The notes below the pieces were generated by a model. That model was not told the origin of the DNA. It did not search any database and saw only the letters and a program-made list of their open reading frames with translations. From a virus (lineage: Duplodnaviria > Caudoviricetes), in the IMG/VR virus record IMGVR_UViG_3300036761_002481, positions 808-64,807 of that record: a DNA stretch of 64,000 nucleotides, one strand, 5' to 3'. A program made the position numbers and the translations under genes. How positions within the stretch are numbered: the first letter of the stretch is position 1; each line of letters opens with the position of its first letter. Positions 7,379 to 59,056 of the stretch are shown in pieces.

Positions 7379-7692
7379 CCTAGGTGTAAGTCGCTGTCCC
7401 GTGAGCGCCCGGTTCGCCTACGAGTCAGGCAATCAGGCGATTCGCTGAAATAGTCGACGAACGCAGGCTCGTTCGCTCGGACACGTCACCTTGTGCGAGC
7501 GCGTCGCACACCGAGGTCGACGGTCACGTTCTGAAAAAATCGGCGTCCGCCGCGGTCGGAAAACGATCTCTCACGGAATGGGATGAAGTACGATCGCCAA
7601 CTCTCGCCGGTCGAGCGCGCGCGGACGCCGGAGAGTCAGGGCCACTGGCCCGAACAAAATAGAGCCGACTCGGCTCGGTCAGGTAACGGCGC

Positions 7693-9720: not shown

Positions 9721-9725
9721 CGGGA

Positions 9726-10307
9726 ATGGTTGCGGGTACCCAGTACGATCAAGACCTCACGCGGCTACGAGACAACCCCGACACGTTTGCCGAGTTCGCT
9801 CGCCGGCATACGGGAATCGTGAAGCGGATCGCTGGCCCTTGGGTGCGGCGATGCCCCGACAAGATCGATATCGACGATGTCTCTCAGGAGGTGCTCGAAG
9901 CGATTTGGCGAGCGGTCGACTCCTGGGATCCTGAGCGCGGCGTGACGCTGCCGCAGTGGGTGCGCAAGTACGTTCGCTTCCGGCTCTTGAAGATGACTGC
10001 TCGGCTTCGCCAAGCGCGCCGAGTAGAGATGCGCCATATCCAGCGGTACGGGCAGCGCGACGACACGGTCTGTGACGAGTCCGCGATCTCGCTCGACGAC
10101 GGAGTCGAGTATTGGCGCCGCGCCGCGATGGTCATCGGTTCGATTCCGGATCGGCAGTCAGCCGACTTCATCGCGCGAGTGCTTCGCGGCCACGGCGTCG
10201 AGCGAGCTCGCCAAGCAGTCTATCTCGACAGCTCTTTCGGCGGAGCGATCCGGAAGTCGCGACGAGCCATCAATAACGCGATCGTCGTCGCTGCGCGTCT
10301 CGCGTAG
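9726..10307 (+). CDS. Phage sigma-70-family sigma factor
   Basis: Region 2-like DIDDVSQE..IWRAVDSWDPERG...W. Confidence 0.75.
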   Translation: MVAGTQYDQDLTRLRDNPDTFAEFARRHTGIVKRIAGPWVRRCPDKIDIDDVSQEVLEAIWRAVDSWDPERGVTLPQWVRKYVRFRLLKMTARLRQARRVEMRHIQRYGQRDDTVCDESAISLDDGVEYWRRAAMVIGSIPDRQSADFIARVLRGHGVERARQAVYLDSSFGGAIRKSRRAINNAIVVAARLA

Positions 10308-10352
10308 AGACGCGCTCAACTCTCTCAAAACTAAACGATTCCGGAGGACCGA

Positions 10353-11432
10353 ATGGGTACGAAGAAAAAGACGACGACGGCTGCGCAACCAGCGAGTGAC
10401 GGCGGCGATCTGCCGTCGTTGGTGCTCGCGAACGGACAGGCACCAGATCTCGACGCGATGCGGCGTGCTGCCGAGATTCTCAAGGTGAAGATTCCGTCAG
10501 GCACCGGCGATGCTGCGACGCGCGAGCTGCTCGGGCTGCTCCGGATGAAGATGGACGAGCTCAACGAGGAAACCGAGGAGGACATGCAGCTCCAGTGCGA
10601 CCAGTGCGGAGAGCGCAGCACCGAGGACACGGATTGGTGTCCTTTCTGCGGCGACCTCGGTACCGCTCCGGACGGTGTTGTGCCGTCCGCGATCGTCGGC
10701 GCTTCGAACATCTCGAGCCTGCCCGAGGTCGCACCGAAGCGAGACGTCGACGGCGCCGTCGCCGCGCTCGGCTCGAAGCTCGACGCGGCGATCGCTCGGC
10801 TCCACACCCTCAAGCACAGCATCGTCGACACCAGCTACGAGATGGGTCTCGTCTGCAAGGAGATCCACGACAAGCAGCTTTTCAAAGCGCGCGGCTTCGA
10901 CTCCTTCAAGCAGTTCGCGGAGTCATCCGAGCTCACGATCTCGCGCTCGACCGCATATCAGTTGATGGCGCTCGTCGAGAAGTTCACGAAAGAGACCTAT
11001 CACGAGCTCGGCTACCGGAAGCTGCGGACGATCGCAGTGCTCGGAAGCGGCGAACGCGAGCAGGTCGTCGCCGCGGCACGCGAGAGCGGCAGCAGCGTCC
11101 GCGAGATCGACGAGAACGTGAGAGAGCGCCGCGGCATCCCGGCACCTGAGAAGAACCGACCGGCACCGACTGCGCCGAAGAGCTCGTCGAAGGTGACGAT
11201 CCTGACGAAGCTCGACGGCAAACCGCGCGAGCTTCGGTTCAAGTCGAGCAAGACGGGCGCGCCGATCGGCAGCGCTGCGAAGGTCTCGCAGTTCGTGGGC
11301 GACGCGTATGCCGAGGTTGAGCTCGAGGGCGGCGTGTTCATTCGCATCGGTCTTCGCGTTAGCGGACGCGACCTGATCGGGCTCAGCGCCGAGTTCCGGC
11401 GTGCCGAGGAGCTTGCTGCGGCGGCTCAATGA
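10353..11432 (+). CDS. Zn-ribbon plus HTH DNA-binding protein (DUF3102/ParB-HTH-like)
   Basis: CDQC..CPFC; KEIHDKQLF..GFDSFKQF..ISRSTAYQLM. Confidence 0.6.
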   Translation: MGTKKKTTTAAQPASDGGDLPSLVLANGQAPDLDAMRRAAEILKVKIPSGTGDAATRELLGLLRMKMDELNEETEEDMQLQCDQCGERSTEDTDWCPFCGDLGTAPDGVVPSAIVGASNISSLPEVAPKRDVDGAVAALGSKLDAAIARLHTLKHSIVDTSYEMGLVCKEIHDKQLFKARGFDSFKQFAESSELTISRSTAYQLMALVEKFTKETYHELGYRKLRTIAVLGSGEREQVVAAARESGSSVREIDENVRERRGIPAPEKNRPAPTAPKSSSKVTILTKLDGKPRELRFKSSKTGAPIGSAAKVSQFVGDAYAEVELEGGVFIRIGLRVSGRDLIGLSAEFRRAEELAAAAQ

Positions 11433-23966: not shown

Positions 23967-24920
23967 GTGACCGACCAACCACGAAGTCGCCGAAGTCCGG
24001 CAGCCGGCAAGCCGAAGAAGTTCTCGGAAGCCGAGTGGGACTCGATGGTCAACGCGTTTCGCGAGCATCCGGGGCAAACGACGCGCGTCTCGGAGCTGAC
24101 CGGCATCAAGCGAGCGCGCGTCGTCCGGGCTTGGCATCACGGGTACGAGCTCCAGGGCCGACCGCCGATCTCGGAGCTCCTGGACGCCGACAAGGTGCTC
24201 GCGCGGGCGAAGCGCGCCGACCTCGTGCCGGGAGCGACCGTCATCGTCGAGGACGAGCCTGGCGATCTCGCCGCCGAGGTCGTCGACACGATCGAGCCTG
24301 ACGACGTCGTCCACACGCGACAGCACCGGAAGATGATGGCCGGCATGGTCGAGCGCGACCGGATTCGCCGGAAGGCTCTCGAGGACTCCGCTCGGACGCG
24401 TGCCGAGGAGGGCGCGCTGATCGCGGTCAGCCGGCGCAACGTGATGGCGCTCGGCACGATCTCCGCGCAAGTGCTTCGCGGCGCCCAGCAGCTCGCGACC
24501 CGGATGCAGAAGCAGCTCGAGAAGGCGAGCAACACCGACATCTCGCTGAAGGAGGGCATGCAGCTTATCCAGCGCGCGTCGGTCGTCGTTCGGCTCGGCA
24601 CAGAGGCGGGCAAGATGGCGGTCCAGATGGAGCGTCTCGCGATGGGTCAACCGATCGGCGAGGGACTCGACACGAACACGACGAAGCTCTCGCCCGACGA
24701 CGCCGAGCGCTGGATCGACATGACCGTGAGAGCGCTCGAGCGAGCGCGCAGGCGGCGAGAGAGCGGAGGCGAGAATGAGGTTCCGAGCCGGAGCGCTCAG
24801 GCAGAGCGACCACCCGAGCGACCGAGCGAGCAGCCAGCAGCACCCGAACCTCCGCACCGTCTCGAGCCGGACGCAGGACTCGCCAGAGCCGTCGGTCGCA
24901 CCACGCCCGAGCTCAACTGA
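23967..24920 (+). CDS. Candidate terminase small subunit (N-terminal HTH)
   Basis: HTH-like TRVSELTGIKRARVVRAW; directly upstream of TerL; start uncertain. Confidence 0.5.
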   Translation: MTDQPRSRRSPAAGKPKKFSEAEWDSMVNAFREHPGQTTRVSELTGIKRARVVRAWHHGYELQGRPPISELLDADKVLARAKRADLVPGATVIVEDEPGDLAAEVVDTIEPDDVVHTRQHRKMMAGMVERDRIRRKALEDSARTRAEEGALIAVSRRNVMALGTISAQVLRGAQQLATRMQKQLEKASNTDISLKEGMQLIQRASVVVRLGTEAGKMAVQMERLAMGQPIGEGLDTNTTKLSPDDAERWIDMTVRALERARRRRESGGENEVPSRSAQAERPPERPSEQPAAPEPPHRLEPDAGLARAVGRTTPELN

Positions 24921-26439
24921 GCCTCCCCCGGCACCGGCGCCCGCTCCCGAGGATCTCGAGCTCGAGGTCCGCGGGCTCGAAGCGCGCGCGATCATGATCG
25001 AGCTCTGCAGAGAGGACGTGAACGACTTCTGCGAGTTCGTTCTTCGTGACGACGACAGCGGCGAGCCGATCTCGCAGCTCGATTTCCACGTGCAGATCCA
25101 GGACGCGTTCGATCGCTACAAGAAGATCGTCGTGATGGCTCACCCCGAATCGGGGAAGACGAACCAGCTCGCGATCGGTCGAGTGCTCTGGGAGCTCGGC
25201 AGGAATCCTAACTTGCGCGTGATGCTGATCGGCAACACGCAGGAGAGCGCGCGGAAAAGTCTCACGTCGATCAAGAAGTACATCGAGAAAAGCGAAGAGC
25301 TCCATCTCGTGTTCCCCGATCTTCGGAAGGGCGACATCTGGCAGGACGTCGCGATCACGGTCCAGCGCCCGACCTACTCGAAGGATCTAACCGTCCTGGC
25401 CGTCGGCTACGGCTCGAACAACGTGCTCGGTTCGCGCGTCGATCTGATGATCATGGACGACTTGCTGAACCTCGACACGACGTCGACCGAGGCGCAGCGC
25501 AGGAAGGTCAGCCAGTGGGTGCGCACGACCGCTCTGTCGCGCTGCGCGCTCAACGCGCGCGTCGCGTTCCTTACGAACGCTTGGCACCCGCGCGACCTCG
25601 CCCACGAGCTGTTCAAAGAACGCGGCTGGCACCTCGTCAAGCGACCGATTCGCGTTCCGGACGCCGACGGCAACCTCGTGTCGGTCTGGCCGGAGCGCTG
25701 GCCCGAGCACCGCATCCGAGAGAAGGAGAAGGGCGGCTCGCTCGAGTTCGCTCAGATCTACATGTGCGAGCCGCGCGACGAGGGCGACATCATCTTCAAG
25801 CCGGCGTTCTTCGTTCTCTGCAAGCGAAAGGGGCAGGGCATCGCGCCGGTCCAGCGGCTCGACTCGATCCCGCCTGGCTGCCTCGTCGTCTCCGGCGTCG
25901 ACATCGGCGGCACCAGGATCGTCGGAGCGCTGTCGGTCATCGCGACGCTGTTCCTGCATCCGAACGGCGTCCGCCAACCGCTCTGGTGCGAGTCCGGCCG
26001 CTGGGGCGTCACCGAGCTGATTCATCGCGTCGTCTCGACCGGCCAGCGCTACGGCGGCGTCATCGCGGTCGAGAACAACGGCATCCAGCAGCACCTGGTC
26101 GATCTCGCGATCGAGAACAACACCGCGGTCGTTCCGATCATCCCGTACTACACCGGCGCGCAGAAGTCCGACCCACGCTTCGGCGTCGCGTCGATGGCGA
26201 GCGAGTTCGAGGGCGCGCGCTGGATGTGGCCGACCGAGTATCCGGACCTGATGTCGCGGAACGTCGAACGCGAGCTCGAAGAGTCGATCGTCGACATGAT
26301 CGACTACACGCCCGAGGCGCACACCGGAGACCGCCTGATGGCTTGGTGGATCGCTCGCGAGGTCGCTCGCCGGCTTCACGCTTACCTGTTCGGCGACGAC
26401 TCGCAGAGAAACAGCGTCGCGGTTCAGGTCTTCGGCTAG
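24775..26439 (+). CDS. terL: Terminase large subunit
   Basis: HPESGKT Walker A, LMIMDD Walker B, GVDIG, VENNG, HTGDRLMA. Confidence 0.9.
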   Translation: MRFRAGALRQSDHPSDRASSQQHPNLRTVSSRTQDSPEPSVAPRPSSTEPPPAPAPAPEDLELEVRGLEARAIMIELCREDVNDFCEFVLRDDDSGEPISQLDFHVQIQDAFDRYKKIVVMAHPESGKTNQLAIGRVLWELGRNPNLRVMLIGNTQESARKSLTSIKKYIEKSEELHLVFPDLRKGDIWQDVAITVQRPTYSKDLTVLAVGYGSNNVLGSRVDLMIMDDLLNLDTTSTEAQRRKVSQWVRTTALSRCALNARVAFLTNAWHPRDLAHELFKERGWHLVKRPIRVPDADGNLVSVWPERWPEHRIREKEKGGSLEFAQIYMCEPRDEGDIIFKPAFFVLCKRKGQGIAPVQRLDSIPPGCLVVSGVDIGGTRIVGALSVIATLFLHPNGVRQPLWCESGRWGVTELIHRVVSTGQRYGGVIAVENNGIQQHLVDLAIENNTAVVPIIPYYTGAQKSDPRFGVASMASEFEGARWMWPTEYPDLMSRNVERELEESIVDMIDYTPEAHTGDRLMAWWIAREVARRLHAYLFGDDSQRNSVAVQVFG

Positions 26440-39404: not shown

Positions 39405-39775
39405 GCGACGACCTGGAGCAGCTCCTTACGAACGAAGACGTTGCGAGAGTGCTCCGCGTTTCGAGCAAACGAGCCTACGCGATCATGCGGCGCTGGCCGT
39501 TCCGCGTGCTGATCGGAACCGGTATCAAGCCGCTCGTCCGCGTGCGACGAAGCGACTTCGATGAGTGGTTAGAGTCGAGGGGAGACGCAGCAACATGTCC
39601 ATCAAGCTCAGGCGAACGAAAAAGTCTCGATACCTCTACGTCGAGGGGCGCGACTGGGAAGGTGTCGAGTATCGGCTCTCGACGGGTCAAACCGAAGAAG
39701 GGCCAGCCCTGCTCCGAGCCCGCCAGATCCAGCTTGAGAGATCGGTTCCCCGGACTAAACCTTACTCGCTACTGA
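39401..39775 (+). CDS. xis: Excisionase-like HTH protein
   Basis: LLTNEDVARVLRVSSKRAY..RVRRSDFDEWL; overlaps the integrase start. Confidence 0.75.
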   Translation: MSDDLEQLLTNEDVARVLRVSSKRAYAIMRRWPFRVLIGTGIKPLVRVRRSDFDEWLESRGDAATCPSSSGERKSLDTSTSRGATGKVSSIGSRRVKPKKGQPCSEPARSSLRDRFPGLNLTRY

Positions 39776-40965
39776 AGGCTTTCTCCGCGCTCCAGGACTA
39801 CAAGAAGGTCGGGAAAAAGTCCGACGCGGAGCTCGAGATCGTGACGACGAAGAGCGAGCGCGTGATGGAGTACTTTGGTCCGGAGCGCGACTCGAACACG
39901 CTGACGCACGCCGAGCTGATCGGCTACGTCGAGCGCCGCAGGCTTTGCGAGATCGGCACGACGATCGACGGCGAGACGAAGTTCGTTTCGGATTCGACGA
40001 TCCGGAAAGAGCTCGACAAGCTCTTCGAAGCGCTCCGGCTCGCGAAGACCGACGGCAAGTTCGTCGGCGACGTTGACAAGCTCGCGCGCTCGCGTCGCGT
40101 TCTCGTTCGTTCTCGACCGCGAACGCGAACGCTGACCGAGGACGAGTTCGTGCTGCTCTACTGGGAGCTGCCGCGCAACCGCCAGGACTATCTCTTCAGC
40201 TGGGTGATGCTCGGCGCTCGATACGGCGAGCTCGAACGGATCGTGCCGGCGAGCATCGATCACGACAACCGACGCGTTTGGATCGTCGGGCACAAGGGCG
40301 ATCCGGAGTGGCGCGAGCGCTGGGTGCCGATCGGCGAAGAGATGTATCGACTGCTCTGCCGGCGAGCTGACCGCGTGAAGGCAGGCGAGCCGCTCTTTCC
40401 GGCTTGGGAGAACTCGAACGCGAACACGATGCTGAAGCGCTACTGCGCTCTGCTCGAGATCGCGCCGCTCTCGATCAACGACCTTCGTCGAACGTTCATC
40501 ACGTGGCACGGGATGTACGGGACGAGCGAGGCGGACATGAAGAAGCTCGTCGGACACTCGCCGGCATCGAAGATGGTCGAGCGCGCCTACCGCCAGCTGC
40601 CGGCAGACGCAGGTCGTCCGGCGATCGAGAGACTCCGCTTCGGCCTGACGCCGAACGACGCGATCGATGTTGGCGACGGCGTGAACGTCGTTCCGATCCG
40701 ACCGCACGTCGCGACGCAGACCGTCGAGCAGCTCGCGGACGTCAAGCAGAGACGCGACCATCGAGAGAAGCTGCTCGACTGGCAGAGCCTGTCGCGCGAA
40801 GCGCTCGCGAAGCTCGTCTGGGCGAAGCCGGCTGACATCATCGCGCACGATTACGGGATAAGTGGAACCGCGGTCGCAGCGCGTTGCAAGCGACTCGGGA
40901 TCGACAAGCCGGGGAACGGCTACTGGCAAAAGCTCGAAGCGCGCGTCGGAAAGAAGACTTGGTGA
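39595..40965 (+). CDS. int: Tyrosine integrase with a C-terminal HTH extension
   Basis: GARYGE (R), K, NDLRRTF, VGHS, RAY (Y). Confidence 0.9.
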   Translation: MSIKLRRTKKSRYLYVEGRDWEGVEYRLSTGQTEEGPALLRARQIQLERSVPRTKPYSLLKAFSALQDYKKVGKKSDAELEIVTTKSERVMEYFGPERDSNTLTHAELIGYVERRRLCEIGTTIDGETKFVSDSTIRKELDKLFEALRLAKTDGKFVGDVDKLARSRRVLVRSRPRTRTLTEDEFVLLYWELPRNRQDYLFSWVMLGARYGELERIVPASIDHDNRRVWIVGHKGDPEWRERWVPIGEEMYRLLCRRADRVKAGEPLFPAWENSNANTMLKRYCALLEIAPLSINDLRRTFITWHGMYGTSEADMKKLVGHSPASKMVERAYRQLPADAGRPAIERLRFGLTPNDAIDVGDGVNVVPIRPHVATQTVEQLADVKQRRDHREKLLDWQSLSREALAKLVWAKPADIIAHDYGISGTAVAARCKRLGIDKPGNGYWQKLEARVGKKTW

Positions 40966-41042: not shown

Positions 41043-41831
41043 ATGACTCGTCGACGCTGGCGCTCGGTGATCGAGCAGCGCGCTTCGCTTCGAGCTCGCT
41101 TCCGGAGCGAGGGCGCACTCTGCGACGCTTTAGCCGCTAAAGCCCGCGGCGAGGGCTTCGTCGTTCACGCGGAGACGAGCGGCTGGGATCTGCTGCTCGT
41201 CGCGCCAGGCGGCGCTCAGGTCGGCGTGCAAGCGAAGCTGCGAGCGAACGTCGACGTGCTCGCGCAAGCGCTCGGATCGCCCTACGGAACGACCGGGCCG
41301 GACTATCACGCCGTTCTCGTCGTCGACGCTCCGCCGCCGTTCCGCCGGCTCGCCACCGAGCTCCGCGTCACGATCGTCGACGGCGCTCGCGTCGTCGCAG
41401 ACGCGCCGCTCGCGGAGTTCGTCAAACGCTCGCCGCTCTGGTCGCACGAGACCGCGGAGTGGGTGCCACCGATCGAGATCGCTTGCGTCGTCGGCGGTCG
41501 CTCCGGTCCGGTTCAGATCACACCGTGGAAGATCGCCGCGCTCCAACTCTGCCGACGACTCCGGAAGCGCGGCTGGGTCGCGAAGCGCGACTTCACGGAG
41601 CTCTCGATCTCGCCGACCTACTGGGTGACCGGCTCGAAGCCGCTCCTGAGAGTCGAGAAGAAGCTCGGGAAGGTGTTCCGCTATCATGCGACCGGCCTTG
41701 CGGCGCTCCCGGACGAGCGCTGGCCGGACATCGCAGCGGCGCTCGATCTACACCTCGGTGTACTAGATGAGCGGAGGAACGACGATGCCCCGCAGACGAT
41801 CGTTGCTGGAGTTAGCAGCTCGCGCAGGTGA
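41043..41831 (+). CDS. Hypothetical protein, PD-(D/E)xK-like
   Basis: ETSGWDLLLV..GVQAKL. Confidence 0.5.
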   Translation: MTRRRWRSVIEQRASLRARFRSEGALCDALAAKARGEGFVVHAETSGWDLLLVAPGGAQVGVQAKLRANVDVLAQALGSPYGTTGPDYHAVLVVDAPPPFRRLATELRVTIVDGARVVADAPLAEFVKRSPLWSHETAEWVPPIEIACVVGGRSGPVQITPWKIAALQLCRRLRKRGWVAKRDFTELSISPTYWVTGSKPLLRVEKKLGKVFRYHATGLAALPDERWPDIAAALDLHLGVLDERRNDDAPQTIVAGVSSSRR

Positions 41832-41963: not shown

Positions 41964-42188
41964 ATGAGCGTTTCGATACCGCCACCCTCGCCGGAGGACG
42001 AGCGTGTTCGTGAGCTCGCCCGCGAGTATTGGGAGCTCTGGCAGAAGCTCAGGAAGGGTCCGCGTCGGCAGCTCACGCGCCGCCACAAAGAGACCTACAC
42101 ACGCTGGCTCGAGATCTTCCGTGAGATCATGGAGCTTCGTCCGAACCAGAACCCGGTCGACGTGATCGACCGCCTGAGGCCCTCGTGA
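41964..42188 (+). CDS. Hypothetical protein
   Basis: Coupled ORF. Confidence 0.45.
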   Translation: MSVSIPPPSPEDERVRELAREYWELWQKLRKGPRRQLTRRHKETYTRWLEIFREIMELRPNQNPVDVIDRLRPS

Positions 42189-43450
42189 GGGTCAACCAGA
42201 TCCGAGCGATCGAGCTCTTCGGCTGTGCCGGCGGCATGGCGGACGGCTTTCGCCAGGCAGGGCTTCAGTTCGAGTTCGCGTTCGATCGCGATCCTGACGC
42301 CTGCGCGAGCTACACGGCGAACCTCGGGCGCGCGCCGATCGAGATGGACGTTCGTTCGTTGTCTCGACTGATAGGCCAAGGCTGGCTGCCGCGAAACAAG
42401 ATCGATCTTCTCGTCGCCGATCCACCGTGCACTCCGTGGAGCCGCTCCGGAAAGCGTCAGGGGCTCGCCGATCATCGAGACATGCTCGCCGAAACCTGCT
42501 TGCTGATCTCGAAGCTACGACCGCGCTACTGGCTGATCGGAAACGTCCCCGGACTCGACGACGCCACGAACTGGGAGACGGTCCAGGCAGTGATCGGCGG
42601 CATCGACGGCTACTGCATCGATTACCTCAAGCTCGACGCTGCCGACTACGGCGTGCCGCAGCATCGACTTCGGCCGGTCTGGTTCGGTCACCCGTTCGGC
42701 ACAGCGCATCTCTCCTATCCGCGACCGACGCACTGCGATCCGCGCGAGCGAGATACGCTTCACATCCCCGGCTACGAGATGAGCCCCTGGGTGACCGTTC
42801 GCCAGGCGCTCGAACATTTACCGCTCTCCGATCTCGGCACGCCGATCCGCGTCCGATGGAACAACAAATCGCACGAGCCGTCGCAGCTCGACGTTCCCGG
42901 AAAGGTGGTGCCGGCGAGCCAACCTGGGAACCGCGGAGCGGTGCTGAGCATCGATCACCGGATGAGCGGACCGAACGAGCCGGCGAAGACGCTGACGATG
43001 AACACTCACGGCGATGGAGCGTTGCTCGAGCTCCCGCGTACCAATGCGCCGTGGGCGCTCCTGCGGAACTCGAAGCATCCGATCAACCGAGCGAACGAAC
43101 CGGCGTTCACGATCACGGCGCGCGACACCGGCGGAGCTCAGGGCGGGCGCAGTCTCGAGTGGCCTTGGGATCGACCGTCGACGACCGTCACGTCGCGCGA
43201 CTCGATCCCGAAGTTCGGTCGCAACGGCCGAAATGCGTGGGAGACTCAGAGCGCGAACGCGATAAAGCTCTCGGAGCGAGCGGCATCTCTCCTGCAAGGC
43301 TTTCCTGACGGTTGGAAGTTCGTCGGAAAGACGAAGCGCTCTCGCTGGGCGCAGATCGGCCAGGCGATGCCGCCGCCGCTCGCTCACGCGCTCGCTCGGG
43401 GGATCGTGCGGATCATCTGCGCGCACGATCGACGAGAGGGCCGCGCATGA
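42185..43450 (+). CDS. C5-cytosine DNA methyltransferase family protein, atypical motifs
   Basis: ELFGCAGG, DPPC, GNV in place of ENV, YGVPQHRLR, LQGFPD, QIGQAMPP. Confidence 0.85.
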   Translation: MRVNQIRAIELFGCAGGMADGFRQAGLQFEFAFDRDPDACASYTANLGRAPIEMDVRSLSRLIGQGWLPRNKIDLLVADPPCTPWSRSGKRQGLADHRDMLAETCLLISKLRPRYWLIGNVPGLDDATNWETVQAVIGGIDGYCIDYLKLDAADYGVPQHRLRPVWFGHPFGTAHLSYPRPTHCDPRERDTLHIPGYEMSPWVTVRQALEHLPLSDLGTPIRVRWNNKSHEPSQLDVPGKVVPASQPGNRGAVLSIDHRMSGPNEPAKTLTMNTHGDGALLELPRTNAPWALLRNSKHPINRANEPAFTITARDTGGAQGGRSLEWPWDRPSTTVTSRDSIPKFGRNGRNAWETQSANAIKLSERAASLLQGFPDGWKFVGKTKRSRWAQIGQAMPPPLAHALARGIVRIICAHDRREGRA

Positions 43451-49004: not shown

Positions 49005-49574
49005 TCGACGCACGCGCCCACCGGCTCGCGGTCTGGGCGCGCGCCTGCAAGCACGGCGCGCTCGCGCGTTACCTGGTCTTCGTTCAAGGCGGTCGCGTCT
49101 CGTTCGAGCTGCGACCGGCCGGCGGTCTCGATCAGGCGTACGCGTTCGCGGACGAAGCGCGCGCGAACGGAGCCGAGCAGGTCGCGATCTTCGCGTCGCG
49201 CGGTCCGACACGGGTAGGGAAGCTAGTTCGGCAGTGGGTCTAGGGGTTTCAACGGGGGAAGGGTTTTTTCGATGTTCTGCGCAAACACAGCGTCACGTTG
49301 CTCGCAAGCTCGGTCGTCCGGTTTCCGGCTTCCAACGCGAGACCTACGACGGTCGAGCAGTCGTGATCTTCGTCTGCGGCGAGCTCCGCGCGACCGACAC
49401 GGTCGACGAGCGCTTCGTCGAGGTGATCGTCGCTGGCCGCCGGCTGACGCCGCTGCCGGTCGCGGTAGCCGAGCTCGTTCTTCATGACTCGACGCTCTAC
49501 ACGGCGAGCGAGCTTCTTCAGGAGTGCCGGATGATCGCCGCCGAGCACGCCGACGCGCGCGATACGGATCGCCC

Positions 49575-50069
49575 ATGAGCCGCCGCCGAGCATCGACGCC
49601 GCGCGAGCTTCCGCCGGAGAGCGCGATGAAGACGATCCGCCGCTTCGAGCTCCGAGTCGAACGCGTCCGGCTCGAGAACTTGACGGCACCCTACGGCAGC
49701 GTGATCGACAACTCGCGGCGCGCGTTCGTCGCGGTCCGGTCGCTCATCGGCGATCTCGAACAGGAGGTGATGATCGTCCTGCACCTGAACGCGCGCGGTC
49801 GGCTCGTCGGCTACCACGAAGCCGGTCGCGGTTCGATGACGCAGGTCGCGCTCGATCTCCGGTCGATCTTCCGGACCGCGCTCGTCGCCGGAGCTGCGTC
49901 GATCATTCTCGCGCACAACCACCCGAGTGGAGACGTGTCGCCGTCGGAGCAGGACGACGTGTTCAGCGCTCTCGAAGTTGCGAAAATCGTCGGCGTTCCG
50001 ATCGTCGACCACGTGATCGTCGCGACCGAGGGATTCTGGTCGTACGCCGACGCCGACCGGCTCCGCTGA
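49575..50069 (+). CDS. RadC-like JAB/MPN domain protein
   Basis: EQEV..LN, LAHNHPSGDVSPSEQD, IVDHVIV. Confidence 0.9.
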   Translation: MSRRRASTPRELPPESAMKTIRRFELRVERVRLENLTAPYGSVIDNSRRAFVAVRSLIGDLEQEVMIVLHLNARGRLVGYHEAGRGSMTQVALDLRSIFRTALVAGAASIILAHNHPSGDVSPSEQDDVFSALEVAKIVGVPIVDHVIVATEGFWSYADADRLR

Positions 50070-50118: not shown

Positions 50119-50733
50119 ATGCGACATCGCGCCGGCCAGCTCAGCCTGATGTTCTCCACCGTCGTCGCCGAGCCGGAGAAGGAGCTGAAGCCGGCGACGA
50201 AGTTCGACTGGGTAGCCGCCGCGAGAAGCGCGCGCGGAGCCTGGTTCTCGGACGACAAGCGGCACCGGCTGCTTCTGTGGCGTTCCTGGAACCAACAGCC
50301 GCGCGTTCTCTTCGGCATGCTCAACCCGTCGACCGCCGGCGCGACCGAAGACGACGCGACGATCAAGCGCTGCATCGCGTTCGCGCGCGCGTGGGGCTTC
50401 GGCGGCTTCTGGGTGGTCAACCTCTACTCGCTCGTCGCGACGCAGCCGGCCGCGCTTTGGTCGACCGATCCGGAAGACCGGAACGACCCGGACGCCGACT
50501 CGACGATCGCCGGAGCGCTCGCGAGATCGGAGATGGTCGTCGCCGCCTGGGGCGTCCTGCCGCTGACCGCCGTCGAGCGAGCCGAGAGCGTGACCGACGT
50601 TCTCTCGCACGGTCGAAGCGTCTTCTGCCTCGGTCGGTCGCGCGGCGGCTTTCCGCGGCACCCGCTCTATCTCTCCGGCGACACGACCCGCGAACTCTAC
50701 AGAGACGCGTCGGAAGCCGCCGCGATACACTGA
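50119..50733 (+). CDS. DUF1643 protein
   Basis: MLNPSTA..DDATIKRC..VNLY..AWG..PRHPLY. Confidence 0.85.
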   Translation: MRHRAGQLSLMFSTVVAEPEKELKPATKFDWVAAARSARGAWFSDDKRHRLLLWRSWNQQPRVLFGMLNPSTAGATEDDATIKRCIAFARAWGFGGFWVVNLYSLVATQPAALWSTDPEDRNDPDADSTIAGALARSEMVVAAWGVLPLTAVERAESVTDVLSHGRSVFCLGRSRGGFPRHPLYLSGDTTRELYRDASEAAAIH

Positions 50734-52883: not shown

Positions 52884-53501
52884 GTGCTGACACGGTCCAC
52901 CAAAACCACACCCGCTAAAAAGCCGCCCCCTGCGCCGAAGAAGCCGGCGATGAGCGTCGAGTTCATGCCGCTCTCGGAGCTCGCGACCTGGCCAGGCAAC
53001 CCGAAAGCGCACGACGAAGAAGTCATCGACGCGTCTCTCGGTCGCTTCGGCTACGTCGAGCCGATCATGCTCGACGAAACGACGAAGCGAATCGTCGCCG
53101 GCCACGGTCGCCGCAACAGCCTGATCGAGCGCAAAGCGAGCGGCGAAGCTCCGCCGGAGCGAGTCGAGCTCCGCGAGGACGGCGAGTGGCTCGTTCCGAT
53201 CGTCCGCGGCGTCGGCTTCAAGAGCGAGATCGAGGCGGAAGCCTACCTGCTGACGAGCAACCAGAGCACGATCCGCAGCGGCTACCACGACGGGCTGCTC
53301 GCCGAGATGCTCGGTCGTCACGAGGACCTGACCGGGCTCGGCTGGTCGCAGGACGACATCGACGCACTGCTGAAGCGCGCGAGCGACCTCGCCGACGCTC
53401 CGCCGATCGAAGCTCCGGACGATTTCCGAGAGTACGACGAGGGCGAGAAGCCAGGCCACGACTGCCCGCAGTGCGGCTTCCGCGTGACCTGTGACCGGTG
53501 A
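52884..53501 (+). CDS. ParB/Srx-like N-terminal domain protein with a C-terminal Zn ribbon
   Basis: WPGNPKAH..SLGRFGYVEPI..IVAGHGR; CPQCG. Confidence 0.85.
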   Translation: MLTRSTKTTPAKKPPPAPKKPAMSVEFMPLSELATWPGNPKAHDEEVIDASLGRFGYVEPIMLDETTKRIVAGHGRRNSLIERKASGEAPPERVELREDGEWLVPIVRGVGFKSEIEAEAYLLTSNQSTIRSGYHDGLLAEMLGRHEDLTGLGWSQDDIDALLKRASDLADAPPIEAPDDFREYDEGEKPGHDCPQCGFRVTCDR

Positions 53502-55131
53502 GCGCCTAGCGCGCCAGCGACGGATTCGCGAGGCGCTTGCGTTCGACGTGCTCGATTCCGCAGCGTGGAGCGCTGACGAGCTCGAAGCGCTCGTTCAGCC
53601 GAAGTATCTCCACGAGTGGGCGCGTCTTGAGCACGGCGAGCAGTCGGCGAAGTTCTTCAACCTGATCAGGTCGCATCCAGACCGGCCGTGCCAGACGATC
53701 GTCGCTTGCTACGGAACGACCGCCGCCGGTCCGATGCATCCATTTCGACCGCGAAAGTTCACGGTCGCAGAGCTGAAGCGCATATGCAGCTTCCCTGACG
53801 ACTTTGAGCTGCCAGGCAGCTACCGGACGCGCTGCGAACGTCTCGGTCGGTCGGTGCCGCCGATCATGATGAGCACGATTGCGGCTACGGTCGCCGAAAC
53901 GATTCTGGGAGATGAAACGATGCGAGCTCGATTACGATCGACGAGCGCGGAGAGCATCAGCGATACGCAGGACTCCGCGCCAACGAAACCACCGTATCGA
54001 GTACCGTCGATGGCCGAGATCGGCGCGCTGATCGGCACGAACGGTCTCGAGATCGTCTCGACGTTCTCCGGCTGCGGCGGCTCCTGCCTCGGCTTCGAGA
54101 TGGCAGGCTACCGCGTTCGCTGGGCGAACGAGTTCGTGCCGGCGGCGCGCGAGGTCTACGCGCTCAATCACCCGGGCGTCGTGCTCGATCCGCGCGACAT
54201 CCGCGCGATCAAGCCGGAGGAGATCCTGAGCGCGATCGGCAAACGCGTCGGAGAGATCGACGTGCTCGAGGGCTCGCCGCCCTGCGCGTCGTTCTCCATG
54301 TCCGGCGCGCGCGAGAAGCACTGGGGGAAAGTGAAGAAGTATTCCGACACGAAGCAGCGGACCGACGACCTGTTCGACGAGTACATCAGGCTGCTTCGCG
54401 GGCTCAAGCCGAAGGTCTTCGTTGCCGAGAACGTTTCCGGGCTCGTGAAGGGGTCGGCATACGGCTACTTCGAGATGGTCCTGAAGGCGATGCGCGAGAG
54501 CGGCTACCGAGTCCGCGCGAAGCTGCTCGACGCGCAGTGGCTCGGCGTGCCGCAGGAGCGGAAGCGAATGATCTTCATCGGCGTTCGCGAAGATCTCGAG
54601 AAGGCGCCGGAGTTCCCGCGGCCGCTCTCCTATCGCTACAGCTTGCGCGACGCGCTTCCGTGGATCTCGACGGTCGACGGTCGGACAGGTCCGGGCTTCA
54701 AGCGAGTCGAGACCGAGGTCGACCGACCCATGAACACGATCCTGAGCACCGATCCGCGGCATACCCGCTATCGCGTCCGCGGGAAGCCGACCTCGTTCGA
54801 GAAGATGGCGATCGCTCGCGAGTGGAACAAGTTGATGCCGGGCGAGCAGTCGGAGCGTTACTTCAATCTCGTGCGACCGCACCCGGACAAGCCGTGTCCG
54901 ACCGTGACCGCTGCCGGCGGCAGCATCAGCACGGCGAGCGTCACTCACCCGACGGAGCCGCGGAAGTTCTTCATCGCGGAACTGCTCCGGATCTGCGGCT
55001 TCCCGGACGACTTCAAGCTTCTCGGCGGTTACGAGCAGCAGTGGGAGCGTCTCGGTCGCTCGGTTCCGCCGTTGATGATGCGCGCGATCGCGGAGACGAT
55101 TCGCGACCGGTTGGTGGTAGCGCCGACCTGA
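53491..55131 (+). CDS. C5-cytosine DNA methyltransferase-fold enzyme, predicted carboxymethyltransferase
   Basis: TFSGCGG, GSPPC, ENV, GVPQERKR, GFPDDF, motif X LGRSVPP; N-terminal duplicate of the C-terminal module. Confidence 0.9.
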   Translation: MTGERLARQRRIREALAFDVLDSAAWSADELEALVQPKYLHEWARLEHGEQSAKFFNLIRSHPDRPCQTIVACYGTTAAGPMHPFRPRKFTVAELKRICSFPDDFELPGSYRTRCERLGRSVPPIMMSTIAATVAETILGDETMRARLRSTSAESISDTQDSAPTKPPYRVPSMAEIGALIGTNGLEIVSTFSGCGGSCLGFEMAGYRVRWANEFVPAAREVYALNHPGVVLDPRDIRAIKPEEILSAIGKRVGEIDVLEGSPPCASFSMSGAREKHWGKVKKYSDTKQRTDDLFDEYIRLLRGLKPKVFVAENVSGLVKGSAYGYFEMVLKAMRESGYRVRAKLLDAQWLGVPQERKRMIFIGVREDLEKAPEFPRPLSYRYSLRDALPWISTVDGRTGPGFKRVETEVDRPMNTILSTDPRHTRYRVRGKPTSFEKMAIAREWNKLMPGEQSERYFNLVRPHPDKPCPTVTAAGGSISTASVTHPTEPRKFFIAELLRICGFPDDFKLLGGYEQQWERLGRSVPPLMMRAIAETIRDRLVVAPT

Positions 55132-55150
55132 ACCGGGTAGATCGGCGGTT

Positions 55151-55618
55151 GTGAAAGTCTGGTGCGACGTTCCGGGGAAGATCGTCCTGATCGGGCAAGC
55201 GCCGTCGAAGGAGACCGACGGCGGCGTCCCGTTCTCCGGCCGGAGCGGCCGCCGGATCGCCGACCTGATGGGCATCCGCCAGGCGGAGCTAGGCGTGCGC
55301 TTCGCGCTCGCGAACGTCCTCGACGCGTGGCCCGGTCCGTCGCGGTTCGGCAAGGGCGACGCGTTTCCGCTCGACGCGGCTCGGCTCGAGGCGGCGCGTC
55401 TTCGTAAGAAGCTCGCCGGTCGGCGCTTGGTCGTCTTCGGAGCAAGCGTCGCGAAGGTTTTCGGATACGATCCGAGAGAGATCCTGCTTCGTTTCTTGAC
55501 CTCCGAGTCGGGCGCGATCGCTTATGTCCCGCACCCGTCCGGAGTGAACACCTGGTGGAACGAACCGGCTAACGTCGCGCAGGCTCAGCGGTTTCTCCAA
55601 AGTCTGCTGTTGGGGTGA
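55151..55618 (+). CDS. Uracil-DNA glycosylase superfamily protein
   Basis: IGQAPS..PFSGRSG..N..HPSG. Confidence 0.8.
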   Translation: MKVWCDVPGKIVLIGQAPSKETDGGVPFSGRSGRRIADLMGIRQAELGVRFALANVLDAWPGPSRFGKGDAFPLDAARLEAARLRKKLAGRRLVVFGASVAKVFGYDPREILLRFLTSESGAIAYVPHPSGVNTWWNEPANVAQAQRFLQSLLLG

Positions 55619-55655
55619 GAATCCGCGTCCGTGGTCGTGGTAGGTAGGTGAACCG

Positions 55656-55919
55656 ATGCAGAACTTCCAACCCGGTCTATATCGGCACTACAGGGGCGGG
55701 CTCTACACCGCGATCTCGCTCGTCACGCACCACGAGAGCGGGCAGCCGATGGTTCTCTACTGCTCGCACACCTACGGCGGGCTTCGCGTCCGGCCGCTGG
55801 AAGGGTACGAGAACGACCGCGACGGCTGGAACGTGCCGGTGGTCGTCGATGGCGAGCTAGTTCCGCGGTTCGAGCTGATCGGCGAGTTGCCGAGCTCGGT
55901 ACCGATCGCCGATCGTTGA
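55656..55919 (+). CDS. DUF1653 protein
   Basis: GLYRHYRGGLY..HHE..MVLY..VRP..RF. Confidence 0.85.
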   Translation: MQNFQPGLYRHYRGGLYTAISLVTHHESGQPMVLYCSHTYGGLRVRPLEGYENDRDGWNVPVVVDGELVPRFELIGELPSSVPIADR

Positions 55920-55952
55920 CGCTTCCGAACTCTCGCGTCGATCCTGCGGCTC

Positions 55953-56669
55953 GTGGAAGGTTCGAGCCTGGGTCACGTGCCGGCGAGCGAGCGCTGGGAG
56001 TTCGACGAGACCGTCGCCGGAGTCTTCGACGACATGCTCGAGAGAAGCATCCCGCTCTACGCGGTGATGCGAGCGGCCGTTCACTCGGTCGCCAGGCGGC
56101 ACGTCGTCCCGGGGGCATCGATCGTCGATCTCGGCTGCGCCCGCGGTGGCGCGCTTGCAAGCTTCGTCGAGGAGCTCGGTAGCGCGAACCGCTACTTCGG
56201 ATGCGACGTCTCCGAGCCGATGCTCGAAGCGGCGCGAGCGCGGTTCGCGCGCCAGGCCGGGATCGTCAGCATCGACAACGTCGATCTTCGGACGAGCTAC
56301 CCGGACGTCGGCGGCGCTTGCGTGACGATGGCCGTCCTGACGCTCCAGTTCGTGCCGATCAACTATCGGCAGCGAATCATGCGCCGCGTCTTCGACCAGA
56401 CGCGACCAGGCGGCGCGTTCGTTCTCGTCGAGAAGGTGATCGGCGCCGGCGCCGGCATCGACGAGCTGATGGTCGACCTCTACCACGAGAAGAAGCAGGC
56501 GAGCGGCTACACCCGAGACGAGATCGACCGGAAGCGGCTCGCGCTCGAGGGCGTGCTCGTGCCCGTGACCGCTCGCTGGAACGAGGAAATGCTTCGGAGC
56601 ACCGGCTTCCGAGAGGTCGACTGCTTCTGGCGCTGGATGAACTTCGCCGCCTGGCTCGCGGTGAAGTAG
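55953..56669 (+). CDS. cmoA: CmoA-like carboxy-S-adenosylmethionine synthase
   Basis: WEFDETVAGVFDDMLERSIPLY, DLGCARG, LTLQF, EK, KRLALEGVL, NFAAWLAVK. Confidence 0.88.
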   Translation: MEGSSLGHVPASERWEFDETVAGVFDDMLERSIPLYAVMRAAVHSVARRHVVPGASIVDLGCARGGALASFVEELGSANRYFGCDVSEPMLEAARARFARQAGIVSIDNVDLRTSYPDVGGACVTMAVLTLQFVPINYRQRIMRRVFDQTRPGGAFVLVEKVIGAGAGIDELMVDLYHEKKQASGYTRDEIDRKRLALEGVLVPVTARWNEEMLRSTGFREVDCFWRWMNFAAWLAVK

Positions 56670-56700: not shown

Positions 56701-57003
56701 ATGCGCGCAGACTTCAAACCGCTCGACCTGCCGGCGACGGCGCCGAACGACGGCGACGATATCGAGTGCTCGGTCTACAAGAACAAGACGGTCCAGATCA
56801 TCGGAGCGTTTACCGGCTCGATCGACATCGAGGTGTCGCTCGACAACGGCGGCCACTACGCCAAGTCGCAGACCGGCATCACGGCGCCTGGCGTCTACGA
56901 CGTCCCGCACACCTGCACGAACATTCGCCTGCATTTGAGCGCTCTCACGGTCGGAACGCCGTCGGCGTACCTCGGCGGGCTCCACACCAGAACCGATGTC
57001 TAA
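56701..57003 (+). CDS. Small beta-rich hypothetical protein
   Basis: GGAGGA RBS; precedes the portal gene. Confidence 0.6.
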   Translation: MRADFKPLDLPATAPNDGDDIECSVYKNKTVQIIGAFTGSIDIEVSLDNGGHYAKSQTGITAPGVYDVPHTCTNIRLHLSALTVGTPSAYLGGLHTRTDV

Positions 57004-59056
57004 AAAGACGACTCGAGACGAGGCTCGCCAGGTCGCGCTCGACGCGACCGACCGGCTCGCGAAGGACGCTCGCGAGCTGCTGGACATGGAGCCGGCCGAG
57101 ATCGGCGTTCAGGTCTTCGGCGACGACCGCGTCAGGAGCATCACGTCGCGCCAAGCGCGCGCGCCGCAGAAGAAGAGCCGTCGACCGACGAGCCGACACG
57201 CGCTCGCGAAAGCGGTCGACTCGCAGCTCTCGCAGCCGGACGTCGACGAGGGAACGCTGCAGCTCGAAGCGGTGTTCAACGTCGATGACCTGCTCGCTCC
57301 GCCCTACAACCCGAAAATGCTGTGCGACCACTTCGCCAACAGCAACGCGTTGCGGCAGAACGTCGACGCGTACGCGACGAACATCGAGGGTTTCGGTCAT
57401 CACTTCGAGCCGACGTTCAAGCTCGATTCCGACGACGCGCGCGTGAAGGTGCGCGAGGCTATGTATCTCGATCGCTTGCTCGCCGAGAGCATCGGCGATC
57501 TCGCGGTCACGGAGCCGACCGACCAAGAGGTCGAGGACAAGATCGCCGAGCTACGCCGCGAGATGATGCTCGAGAAGGCGCGGCTCGACAGCTTCTTCAT
57601 GTTCTGCTGCTTCGACATTCCGTTCATCACGCTCCGGAAGCGGACGCGGATGGACATGGAGATCACCGGCAACGGCTACTGGGAGGTGATTCGAGCGGCG
57701 TCGGGCGCTCCGGCGAACTTCGTCCTGATGCCGTCGCACTCGGTCCGGATGGTGCGCAAGCAGACCGCTCCGGTCGTCGTCAACGAGCTGATCAAGCGCG
57801 GGCCGATCACGTTCACGCCGCACCCGGTGCAGCGCCGCTTCCGACGATTCGTGCAGAGCGTGGCCGGCGACAAACCGGTCTACTTCAAAGAGTTCGGCGA
57901 CCCGCGCGTGATGTCGTCGGCGAGCGGCCGCTACTACGCCGACGTCGAAGCACTGCTGAAGGAAGAGCCGCAGAGCACGACCGCGAACGAGGTTATTCAC
58001 TTCGTCGTGCACTCGCCGACGTCGAGCTACGGCGTACCGCGCTGGATCGGGAACCTGCTCTCGCTGCTCGGCAGCCGCTGCTCGGAGGAGGTGAACTTCA
58101 CCTACTTCGAGAACAAATCGATCCCGCCGCTGATCATCACGGTCTCCGGCGGACGGATGTCGGCTGACACCACGCAGAAGATCCGCTCGTTCATCGACAA
58201 CGACATCAAGGGGAAGCGGAACTTCCACAAGATCATGGTGCTCGAAGCCGAGGCCGGCGGAGCCGCCGCCGCGATGGGTCTCGAGAACGCCGGTCGATGC
58301 CGGATCGAGGTGAAGCCGCTGACCGAAGCGCACTTGAAGGACGCGCTTTTCCAGGAGTACGACAGCCGCAACATGGACAAGATCGGCATGTCGTTCCGGC
58401 TTCCGCGACTGCTGCGCGGCGACATCCGCGACTTCAACCGAGCGTCCGCGCAAGCGTCTCTCGAGTTCGCAGAGAGCCAGGTCTTCGGGCCGGAGCGTGA
58501 CGAGATCGACTACGTGTTCAACCGACTGATCCTGCCAGCGCTCAAGGTCCAGTATTTCGAGATGCACTCGCACGGCCCGCGCATCACGGATCCGACCGAG
58601 ATGGCGACCGTGATCGCGCAGCTGACGAACGTCGGCGCGCTCGTACCGTCCGACGCTCGAAGTCTCGCCGAGGAGCGCGTGTTCTACACGCAGCTGAAGA
58701 AGCTGATCGGTGACTGGCAGGACCAACCGATCCCGCTGACGTCGGTCGGCATCCCGCTCGACACGGAGACCGATCACAAGATCCCGAACCCGGGCGGCGA
58801 CGTCTCGTCGAGCGGTGCTGCGGCCGCGGTCGTTGCTGCTGCGAGAAAGCGCCTTACGGGCGAGGCGAAGAAGATGATCAAGCTCCGCGACCTGCTCTCC
58901 GACGCCGAGCTCGAAGAGGCTGTCACGGAGCTCCGGAAAGCGAAGAAGGCGGAGCGCGTGAAGACGGTCGAGTCGGACGAAGCTCCGGAGACGATCCGGC
59001 TAACGGCAGCCGAGATGAAGACGCGGTTCGGCATCGAGATCGAGCCCGCTGCGTGA
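56996..59056 (+). CDS. Phage portal protein
   Basis: TGNGYWEVIR, EVIHF..YGVPRW, YFEN..P, NRA. Confidence 0.92.
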   Translation: MSKKTTRDEARQVALDATDRLAKDARELLDMEPAEIGVQVFGDDRVRSITSRQARAPQKKSRRPTSRHALAKAVDSQLSQPDVDEGTLQLEAVFNVDDLLAPPYNPKMLCDHFANSNALRQNVDAYATNIEGFGHHFEPTFKLDSDDARVKVREAMYLDRLLAESIGDLAVTEPTDQEVEDKIAELRREMMLEKARLDSFFMFCCFDIPFITLRKRTRMDMEITGNGYWEVIRAASGAPANFVLMPSHSVRMVRKQTAPVVVNELIKRGPITFTPHPVQRRFRRFVQSVAGDKPVYFKEFGDPRVMSSASGRYYADVEALLKEEPQSTTANEVIHFVVHSPTSSYGVPRWIGNLLSLLGSRCSEEVNFTYFENKSIPPLIITVSGGRMSADTTQKIRSFIDNDIKGKRNFHKIMVLEAEAGGAAAAMGLENAGRCRIEVKPLTEAHLKDALFQEYDSRNMDKIGMSFRLPRLLRGDIRDFNRASAQASLEFAESQVFGPERDEIDYVFNRLILPALKVQYFEMHSHGPRITDPTEMATVIAQLTNVGALVPSDARSLAEERVFYTQLKKLIGDWQDQPIPLTSVGIPLDTETDHKIPNPGGDVSSSGAAAAVVAAARKRLTGEAKKMIKLRDLLSDAELEEAVTELRKAKKAERVKTVESDEAPETIRLTAAEMKTRFGIEIEPAA

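Follow-up and report, generated by a model that had tools for sequence, protein, structure and literature searches.

A predicted CmoA-CmoX module for DNA 5-carboxymethylcytosine in a high-GC phage genome, with a doubled target-recognition block and a small UDG-like partner

Here, we identify a cassette of six co-oriented genes leading into the portal gene, at 52.9-59.1 kb of a 64,000-nucleotide stretch of tailed-phage DNA (Caudoviricetes), as in all likelihood a phage module for DNA 5-carboxymethylcytosine (5cxmC) of the CmoA-CmoX kind. The stretch, referred to below as the window, lacks only the first 807 bases of the linear, 64,807-base IMG/VR virus record IMGVR_UViG_3300036761_002481, a contig that is 59% complete (CheckV). 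The cassette encodes, in this order, a ParB-like protein, a cytosine-C5 methyltransferase (MTase), a small protein of the uracil-DNA glycosylase (UDG) superfamily, a DUF1653 protein, a homologue of the carboxy-S-adenosylmethionine (carboxy-SAM, Cx-SAM) synthase CmoA and a 100-residue open reading frame (ORF), after which the portal gene follows. The five genes that a preliminary description of this DNA had placed upstream of the portal are all present as co-oriented ORFs (Table 1).

A predicted CmoA-CmoX module

The MTase is very probably a CmoX-type, Cx-SAM-using DNA cytosine-C5 carboxymethyltransferase. First, its closest solved relative is SpCmoX (8YF3; E = 2.1e-61), the enzyme with which Synechococcus phage S-B43 carboxymethylates DNA cytosine at C5 (Yang et al., Nat Commun 2025, PMC12783734); the next is M.HaeIII (5.8e-25). 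Second, the enzyme has the C5-MTase fold, and in a HMMER alignment the counterparts of SpCmoX Phe25, Glu47, Phe48, Asp69, Cys98 and Arg350 are identical in the window MTase. Its GSPPC motif aligns with SpCmoX S95-C98, and the position of the catalytic Cys265 is invariant in 51 aligned homologues. Third, motif X had been read in the preliminary description as GRSVPP instead of GN(S/A)VPP, and it is so in both of its occurrences in the ORF, which begin with Gly at residues 119 and 522. In the second of these, LGRSVPP, Arg523 aligns with R350 in VGRMVPP of SpCmoX. In the latter enzyme, Arg350 contacts the cofactor carboxylate and replaces the motif X Asn of ordinary MTases; the wild-type protein accepts Cx-SAM only and forms 5cxmC at GC sites, and the R350N variant is dead on both cofactors (PMC12783734). 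Fourth, the CmoA gene lies 822 bp downstream in the same orientation.

The CmoA homologue matches TIGR00740 over the full length of the model (positions 13-239 of 239; 158.7 bits), and the next-best family reaches 28.9 bits. It also matches the CmoA structures of Haemophilus influenzae (1IM8; 1.4e-35) and Escherichia coli (4GEK; 4e-32) across residues 14-238 with no large gaps. The two segments by which it had been recognized, FDDM..RSIP.Y and KR..LE.V, are present as VFDDMLERSIPLY and DRKRLALEGV and align to these structures; within the class I SAM fold, DRKRLALEGV of the C-terminal helical segment aligns with SQKRSMLENV of E. coli CmoA. The Arg of the KR..LE.V motif has a role in prephenate/Cx-SAM binding. 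Judged by its sequence, the protein is a divergent phage branch of CmoA and not a member of a different family. CmoB had not been seen in the window, and TIGR00452 indeed has no match in the whole 64.8-kb record; neither is there a tRNA gene in the 64-kb window. The phage CmoA of S-B43 has been shown experimentally to produce carboxy-SAM (PMC12783734).

Because the MTase is closest to SpCmoX, with identical cofactor contacts, and the CmoA homologue aligns end to end with CmoA structures, these data support the earlier proposal that phage-made Cx-SAM is used by the Arg-bearing C5-MTase to form 5cxmC, as in the S-B43 system. By homology to the tested enzymes, CmoA would convert SAM and host prephenate to carboxy-SAM. 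CmoX would then flip the target cytosine, Cys265 would attack C6 and the carboxymethyl group would be transferred to C5, with Arg523 of motif X holding the cofactor carboxylate. The roles of the partner genes are suggested by context only. The ParB-like protein, a common partner, likely serves in DNA loading or as an activator. The UDG-like protein may excise uracil or deaminated bases, thereby guarding a genome that is worked on by base-flipping C5 enzymes; uracil would be a base that the modification machinery cannot mark. C5-MTase-type enzymes promote C-to-U deamination under cofactor scarcity.

A survey of viral loci places this pair in a wider setting. When viral contigs were scanned with the window CmoA, 131 stretches were found to encode a relative, 80 loci were kept, and neighbors were counted by tblastn with the window proteins. 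A CmoX-type MTase is present in 59 of the 80 loci (the 21 loci with no MTase match include short contigs), and 34 have a ParB-like gene on the upstream side of CmoX. Of the 59 MTases beside CmoA, 56 carry Arg at the Arg523 position; for the remaining three, the alignment does not cover the motif. The co-occurrence of Arg-type MTases with CmoA, which the preliminary description had named as a check, is thus far from chance. Association with ParB domains has also been reported, with 1,660 ParBc among the contigs of 5,615 candidate CmoX (PMC12783734).

The same survey uncovered a divergent MTase class directly upstream of CmoA (loci L050-L054, L056, L074 and L080), in which GFPC replaces SPPC in motif IV. 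The motif X Arg is kept (GRTVTIP or GRTVSIP) in the five loci that align there. The SPPC filter described in the main text of PMC12783734 would miss these enzymes.

Comparison with published and related systems

The core chemistry of CmoA and CmoX and the ParB partner were published in December 2025 (PMC12783734), and the core claim is, therefore, not new; the preliminary description had rightly cautioned that natural phage CmoA/MTase pairs were already reported. It had also considered that the partner genes and a duplicated module might be new. For ParB this does not hold, and DUF1653 is not a recurrent partner (0 of the 80 CmoA loci). The UDG and the duplicated module do not appear in the main text of PMC12783734. 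The locus mainly adds a high-GC, ligase-less member to the published system, and the UDG-like partner and the doubled block of target-recognition domain (TRD) and motifs IX and X (TRD-IX-X module) are the parts worth following.

The window shares with S-B43, as described in that main text, a CmoA beside a C5-MTase with SPPC and the Cx-SAM-binding Arg, a ParB-domain partner and the absence of CmoB. It differs in that its MTase is ∼36% identical to that of S-B43 (tblastn), in the lack of the ligase CmoY, in the UDG-like and DUF1653 genes that separate CmoX from CmoA, in the additional TRD-IX-X module at the N terminus of CmoX and in its high GC content, which is ∼65% throughout the window. The nearest relative is the uncultured viral contig L004 (109.5 kb), in which the order ParB-CmoX-UDG-[slot]-CmoA-small ORF-portal recurs with 53-69% protein identity (CmoA, 69%). 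Streptomyces phage TurkishDelight encodes ParB, ParB, MTase, a glutamine amidotransferase (GATase) ligase and a CmoA-like protein as gp121-125, and its MTase is 52.5% identical to that of the window. Unlike the window, both L004 and TurkishDelight have a GATase/Asn-synthase ligase in the DUF1653 slot (460 aa in L004), and neither has the N-terminal module, their CmoX proteins starting at about residue 140-160; TurkishDelight also has no UDG-like gene among its annotated features. The variable (target-recognition) region of L004 CmoX (3894-5081) is much shorter than that of the window enzyme, and the two phages probably modify different sequences. Finally, in the engineered M.MpeI N374K, a basic residue likewise replaces the motif X Asn and enables a C5-MTase to use Cx-SAM (PMC12783734); by contrast, the window enzyme is natural, has Arg instead of Lys and belongs to another MTase lineage.

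The final product

In S-B43, CmoY adds glycine to 5cxmC, and the glycine amide, but not 5cxmC, was found in virion DNA (PMC12783734). As far as the 59%-complete contig shows, the window holds a CmoA-CmoX system without CmoY. PF00733 (Asn-synthase-type ligase) has no match on the 64.8-kb contig, and tblastn of four CmoY/ligase queries (those of L004, TurkishDelight and L097 and the ligase domain of L090) against the window gave nothing better than E 0.088. The ORF at 41043-41831 was considered as a hidden ligase on account of a repeated weak match and rejected; it has no PP-loop motif and only a weak restriction-endonuclease-like Pfam hint.

Because a CmoY-type amide ligase is found neither in the cassette nor on the contig, the mark may stay un-amidated, with free 5cxmC as the end product, and the window phage is a candidate for DNA in which the free carboxylate is the final mark. 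We regard this outcome as evenly balanced, because 41% of the genome is missing and several ORFs are unannotated. Weighing against it are precisely these facts: a ligase or another tailoring enzyme may lie off the contig, and several large window ORFs have no family.

The competing explanation is that 5cxmC is made but is an intermediate only, to be processed further, as by CmoY in S-B43, by a tailoring enzyme encoded off the contig or present there without being recognized (DUF1653 or the product of an unannotated ORF on the contig). We hold this to be possible but somewhat unlikely. In its favor, besides the incompleteness of the contig and the sole presence of the glycine amide in S-B43 virion DNA (PMC12783734), the cassettes of L004 and TurkishDelight carry the GATase/Asn-synthase ligase in the very slot that DUF1653 occupies here. 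However, neither an Asn-synthase match nor a CmoY remnant is present on the 64.8 kb, CmoX abuts CmoA without a ligase in many viral loci, and a ligase like TurkishDelight gp124 (CmoY match) occurs in just 18 of the 80 CmoA loci.

As for DUF1653 itself, it is an 87-aa domain of unknown function in which no nucleotide-binding motif was detected, and this also speaks against it as the tailoring enzyme, as does its absence from all 80 CmoA loci. The protein matches the structural-genomics entry 3BE3, an “uncharacterized protein” (E = 4e-6), and neither longer homologues nor the PDB provided a functional lead. A single-sequence scan of viral contigs with the DUF1653 protein gave no matches, and the domain occurs in one of 25 viral UDG loci, 5.5 kb away. 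Because it is not a recurrent neighbor, DUF1653 is probably a passenger gene. In an exact look-up of the called proteins of the window in a protein collection, it was the only one that matched.

The small UDG-like protein

The third cassette gene encodes a member of the UDG superfamily (PF03167, 39.9 bits versus a cut-off of 24.3) with both motif A (G-x-x-P) and motif B (HPS). Its motifs GQAPS, WPG..GKGDAFP and VPHPSGVN are conserved. An alignment of 12 sequences keeps GQAPS and VPHPSG; in it, His128 is invariant and Asn55 and Asp70 are nearly so. An AF2 model of the protein has a pLDDT of 94.3, and Foldseek places it nearest to UdgX and family-4 UDGs (E = 1e-7 to 1e-5, probability 1.00). In family-4 UDGs and UdgX, four Cys residues ligate a 4Fe-4S cluster. 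By contrast, the window protein has one Cys in 155 aa and scores 16.6 bits against TIGR00758, for which the cut-off is 125.3. From these features, it is a separate small branch without Fe-S cluster ligands. The closest solved sequence is the uncharacterized 3IKB (E = 5.9e-5). The protein resembles family-4 UDGs, UdgX and the UDG domains of DNA polymerases from thymidine (T)-hypermodified phages (PMC13697223) in its UDG fold and, as regards these phages, in its occurrence in genomes with C5-modified pyrimidines; it differs from them in its small size, its single Cys, its own GKGDAFP loop and in standing alone inside modification cassettes.

A single-sequence scan of viral contigs with the UDG-like protein gave no matches, whereas alignment-based scans succeeded and returned 25 viral and 50 metagenome loci. 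These correspond to 58 distinct loci by an exact-substring test on the UDG region, some near-identical loci remaining among them. Cmo genes (CmoX, CmoA and/or CmoY) lie beside the UDG-like gene in 14 of the 58, in at least five gene orders. A TET-associated glycosyltransferase (TAGT, PF20691) is found within the locus in 20 (Pfam-confirmed for four), and a radical-SAM/SPASM gene only is adjacent in two. In the remaining 22, most of which are contigs shorter than 2.5 kb, none of the three was seen. Relatives in cultured phages (45 records) are almost all from Yuavirus-type Pseudomonas phages, plus PhiJL001. In Pseudomonas phage LKO4 (L084, 6998-7504), the UDG-like gene is just upstream of pyridoxal-phosphate (PLP) and radical-SAM genes in the thymidine-hypermodification region. 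In PhiJL001 (L085, 5616-6465), it is upstream of a glucosyltransferase and a dUMP hydroxymethylase; the match there extends over the annotated ORFs gp16 and gp17, pointing to a gene that is split or was called wrongly.

In two cases, the UDG-like domain is fused to another protein. A 417-aa ORF (6206-7459; L090, L092 and L093) that separates the CmoX and CmoA genes encodes a PP-loop Asn-synthase-type domain, with no GATase, and a UDG-like domain in one chain, and P0010 (226 aa) joins chorismate mutase (PF01817) to such a UDG-like domain. Chorismate mutase makes prephenate, the co-substrate of CmoA, and the latter fusion thus links the UDG-like family to prephenate supply for CmoA. The L090/L092/L093 phage has a GC content of 47% and has, in addition, a distinct UDG that is joined to a PolA exonuclease domain (9246-10412).

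UDGs of T-hypermodified phages are active, removing deoxyuridine and sparing modified T (PMC13697223). From its genomic context, we suggest that the UDG-like protein is most likely an accessory of post-replicative pyrimidine hypermodification clusters that excises uracil or a deaminated product. Some findings pull against this assignment. Motif A of the family (GQAPS) lacks the acidic residue of family-1 UDGs, in which this motif carries the catalytic Asp. The UDG-like gene is present in one of the 80 best CmoA loci (L004). Moreover, a quick tree with weak support mixes Cmo-linked with TAGT-linked members, which argues for a function common to the Cmo and TAGT systems. Finally, the fusions could point instead to a non-repair role.

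Because of these fusions, a role other than that of a repair glycosylase is a serious rival, which we nevertheless consider rather unlikely. Accordingly, the protein might be an integral, perhaps non-catalytic, base-flipping or substrate-presenting subunit of post-replicative pyrimidine hypermodification machines, or a shield of modified bases from host glycosylases. The one-ORF fusions to a CmoY-type PP-loop ligase domain and to chorismate mutase would fit such a role, as would the position beside Cmo genes in several gene orders and the Ala at the family-1 catalytic Asp position; in L090, the UDG fused to the polymerase exonuclease domain would make a second plain UDG redundant. On the other hand, fusions of neighboring genes can be accidental, and the UDG-like gene stands alone in ligase-less cassettes (the window, L088, L105 and L106). 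The invariant motif-B His and the nearly invariant Asn and Asp are as an active enzyme would keep them, and family-4 and family-5 UDGs also lack the Asp in question. An excising accessory is the preferred reading.

A UDG-type partner is not mentioned in the main texts of PMC12783734, PMC8256090 and PMC8989533 or in section 12 of PMC13229309, although the supplementary neighborhood tables of PMC12783734, PMC8256090 and PMC13229309 may list one. A compact UDG-fold protein recurs in pyrimidine hypermodification clusters of three kinds, in some cases joined to pathway enzymes, and could provide these pathways with a quality-control or substrate-handling step that has been missing.

The doubled TRD-IX-X module

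The window CmoX carries an extra TRD-IX-X module ahead of its catalytic core. Residues 42-139 are 55% identical to the C-terminal block of the same protein (residues ∼444-542), with GRSVPP in both, and the duplicated module of the preliminary description is, therefore, real. Compared to the homologue P0020, the N-terminal module is 84% identical, the core 82% and the C-terminal module 68%, whereas the linker between the first module and the core is 23% identical. The contrast between module and linker implies a translated, selected domain on a free linker. Hence, on this comparison, the extra module is translated with CmoX and under purifying selection; its role is probably that of a second small domain, and both TRD-IX-X copies appear to be selected. 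In an AF2 model of full CmoX (pLDDT 82.5), the extra module has a pLDDT of mostly 80-91 and the same helices as the C-terminal module.

The arrangement is not restricted to the window. A search with CmoX residues 1-186 matched 1,103 proteins, of which 120 were listed and 26 of these examined; the whole-ORF architecture is common to P0020, P0021 and P0022 (3 of the 26 examined). When 1.84 billion representatives were scanned with the module, 1,993 of them matched. Among the 150 of these that were listed, 13 have two to five matched stretches, and all 13 were examined. Arg-type copies are located at both the N and the C terminus in P0145, P0146 and P0154, and in tandem at the C terminus in P0141 and the fragment P0140. 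P0142, P0143, P0144, P0147, P0237, P0240 and P0244 are Asn-type multi-module enzymes, and P0148 is mixed, a single Arg-type module being accompanied by a weaker copy of the Asn type. In P0142, P0237, P0244, P0144 and P0141, two to five complete modules stand in tandem at the C terminus or before the catalytic core. In P0154, the SPPC Cys of motif IV is followed directly by a long insertion that looks like a putative intein. In many CmoX homologues (P0035, P0054, P0074, P0091, P0104, P0126 and P0139), N-terminal extensions contain at least one TRD-like D-R-P-x-P-T-I/V unit without motifs IX and X, and the variable regions of these proteins also contain several such repeats. Among the 159 loci that were fetched, none has two modules in one open frame.

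We first took the N-terminal module for a pseudogene remnant preceding a true start at ATG 53920, because of its lower GC content at third codon positions (GC3), a Shine-Dalgarno-like box and shorter relatives. This reading was dropped on the difference between 84% and 23% identity and on the homologues of the same architecture. What still weighs against a selected module is that GC3 is 0.75 in the module and 0.67 in the linker versus 0.89 in the core, and that the internal ATG at 53920 has a GGGAG box 8 nt upstream, from which a shorter CmoX isoform is possible. The stronger version, in which the module is the decaying remnant of a second cmoX gene and the real protein has 403 aa, draws on the same GC3 values and GGGAG box and on the CmoX proteins of L004, TurkishDelight, L088 and L008, all of which begin near this point. 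We consider it quite improbable: besides the identity to P0020 and the architecture shared with P0021 and P0022, the module is also present in P0145, P0146 and P0154 (Arg) and in P0143 and P0147 (Asn), and every copy retains motifs IX and X in full.

Natural permuted C5-MTases of the M.BssHII type carry TRD-IX-X in front of motifs I-VIII (PMC5944983), as the window CmoX does. The layout of the window enzyme is the one expected, under the permutation-by-duplication model of the same source, after tandem duplication when the first copy alone has been truncated. However, the window CmoX retains the C-terminal block as well and is doubled rather than permuted. It is speculation that the two modules take turns on a single core and thereby confer two specificities. 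An outside chance is all that we give to the combined proposal of a “two-headed” CmoX, in which two divergent TRD-IX-X modules, both equipped with a Cx-SAM-binding Arg, would serve one core (I-VIII) in turn and direct 5cxmC to two different target sequences, together with a small UDG-like protein as a dedicated, as yet undescribed component common to Cmo, TET/5mYOX-glycosyltransferase and thymidine hypermodification clusters. If true, the two-headed enzyme would represent, in a natural form kept by selection, the duplication intermediate that has been postulated for circular permutation; it would also open a new way to multispecificity, one present in ordinary C5-MTases as well. A limited literature search found no description of the doubled module. 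Selected multi-module C5-MTases suggest an unstudied way to change or multiply target specificity, of interest for engineering carboxymethyltransferases as sequencing and labeling tools.

Ordinary cytosine methylation

The window encodes a second C5-cytosine MTase (42185-43450, + strand, 421 aa; PF00145, 3.3e-41), with DPPC in motif IV and GQAMPP in motif X, i.e., Gln in place of either Asn or Arg. Its neighbor at 39565-40965 is an integrase-like gene. Through this second MTase, the phage probably forms ordinary 5-methylcytosine (5mC) at other sites as well.

Two considerations temper the assignment of the cassette enzymes to Cx-SAM chemistry. First, the CmoA homologue remains under both NCBIfam equivalog cut-offs (TIGR00740, 158.7 versus 193.3 bits; NF011995, 111.7 versus 285). 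Second, the motif X Arg is necessary in SpCmoX, and necessity alone would not amount to sufficiency for Cx-SAM selectivity in the window lineage. That the cassette MTase is instead an ordinary SAM-dependent 5mC methylase, with the CmoA homologue serving another purpose such as RNA modification or SAM depletion (raised as a possible side effect in the discussion of PMC12783734), would agree with these scores but is very improbable, given that wild-type SpCmoX took Cx-SAM only (PMC12783734) and the window enzyme has the same cofactor contacts including the Arg, that nearly all CmoA-adjacent MTases (56 of 59) share this Arg, that CmoB is absent from the contig and tRNA genes from the window, and that the separate GQAMPP enzyme already covers ordinary methylation.

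Gene order and surroundings

The coordinates of the cassette are given in Table 1. The ParB-like protein has no Pfam match at E ≤ 0.01; in addition to the ParB-like families of PHROGs, it matches the N-terminal part of the ParB-fused DNA methyltransferase family phrog_498.

Table 1. Positions of the cassette genes and of the CmoX features discussed in the text, in window coordinates
Feature	Position	Strand	Evidence
ParB-like protein, 205 aa, first cassette gene	52884..53501	+	PHROGs ParB-like partition protein families, best phrog_620 2.6e-22
CmoX-type C5-MTase (predicted), 546 aa, with extra N-terminal module	53491..55131	+	PF00145 4.5e-63
Extra N-terminal module: TRD-end, motif IX (FPDDF) and motif X (GRSVPP), residues 42-139	53614..53907	+	
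Arg120 of the extra N-terminal module (GRSVPP)	53848-53850	+	
Catalytic Cys265, motif IV (GSPPC) of CmoX	54283..54285	+	Aligned with SpCmoX Cys98 in DGSPPC
Arg523, motif X (LGRSVPP) of CmoX, predicted Cx-SAM carboxylate ligand	55057..55059	+	Aligned with SpCmoX Arg350
Small UDG-superfamily protein, 155 aa	55151..55618	+	PF03167 5.4e-10; phrog_12275 9e-23
DUF1653 protein, 87 aa	55656..55919	+	PF07866 1.2e-12
CmoA-type carboxy-SAM synthase (predicted), 238 aa	55953..56669	+	TIGR00740 1.9e-46
100-aa ORF directly 3' of CmoA, then portal	56701..59056	+	Portal 56996-59056, Phage_portal PF04860 3.9e-13

Just upstream of the cassette are genes for a DUF1643 protein (50119-50733; 4e-33) and a RadC-like JAB domain protein (49524-50069). 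DUF1643 may be UDG-like; hhalign of this protein against the small UDG profile gave a probability of 0.4, and no relation was seen.

The large terminase gene (24775-26439; PHROG 3.7e-52) is ∼30 kb away from the portal gene, and an integrase-like gene, Uma2 and RadC-like genes, DUF1643 and ThyX lie between the two. This separation is an unusual layout, possibly reflecting a mosaic genome or an assembly join.

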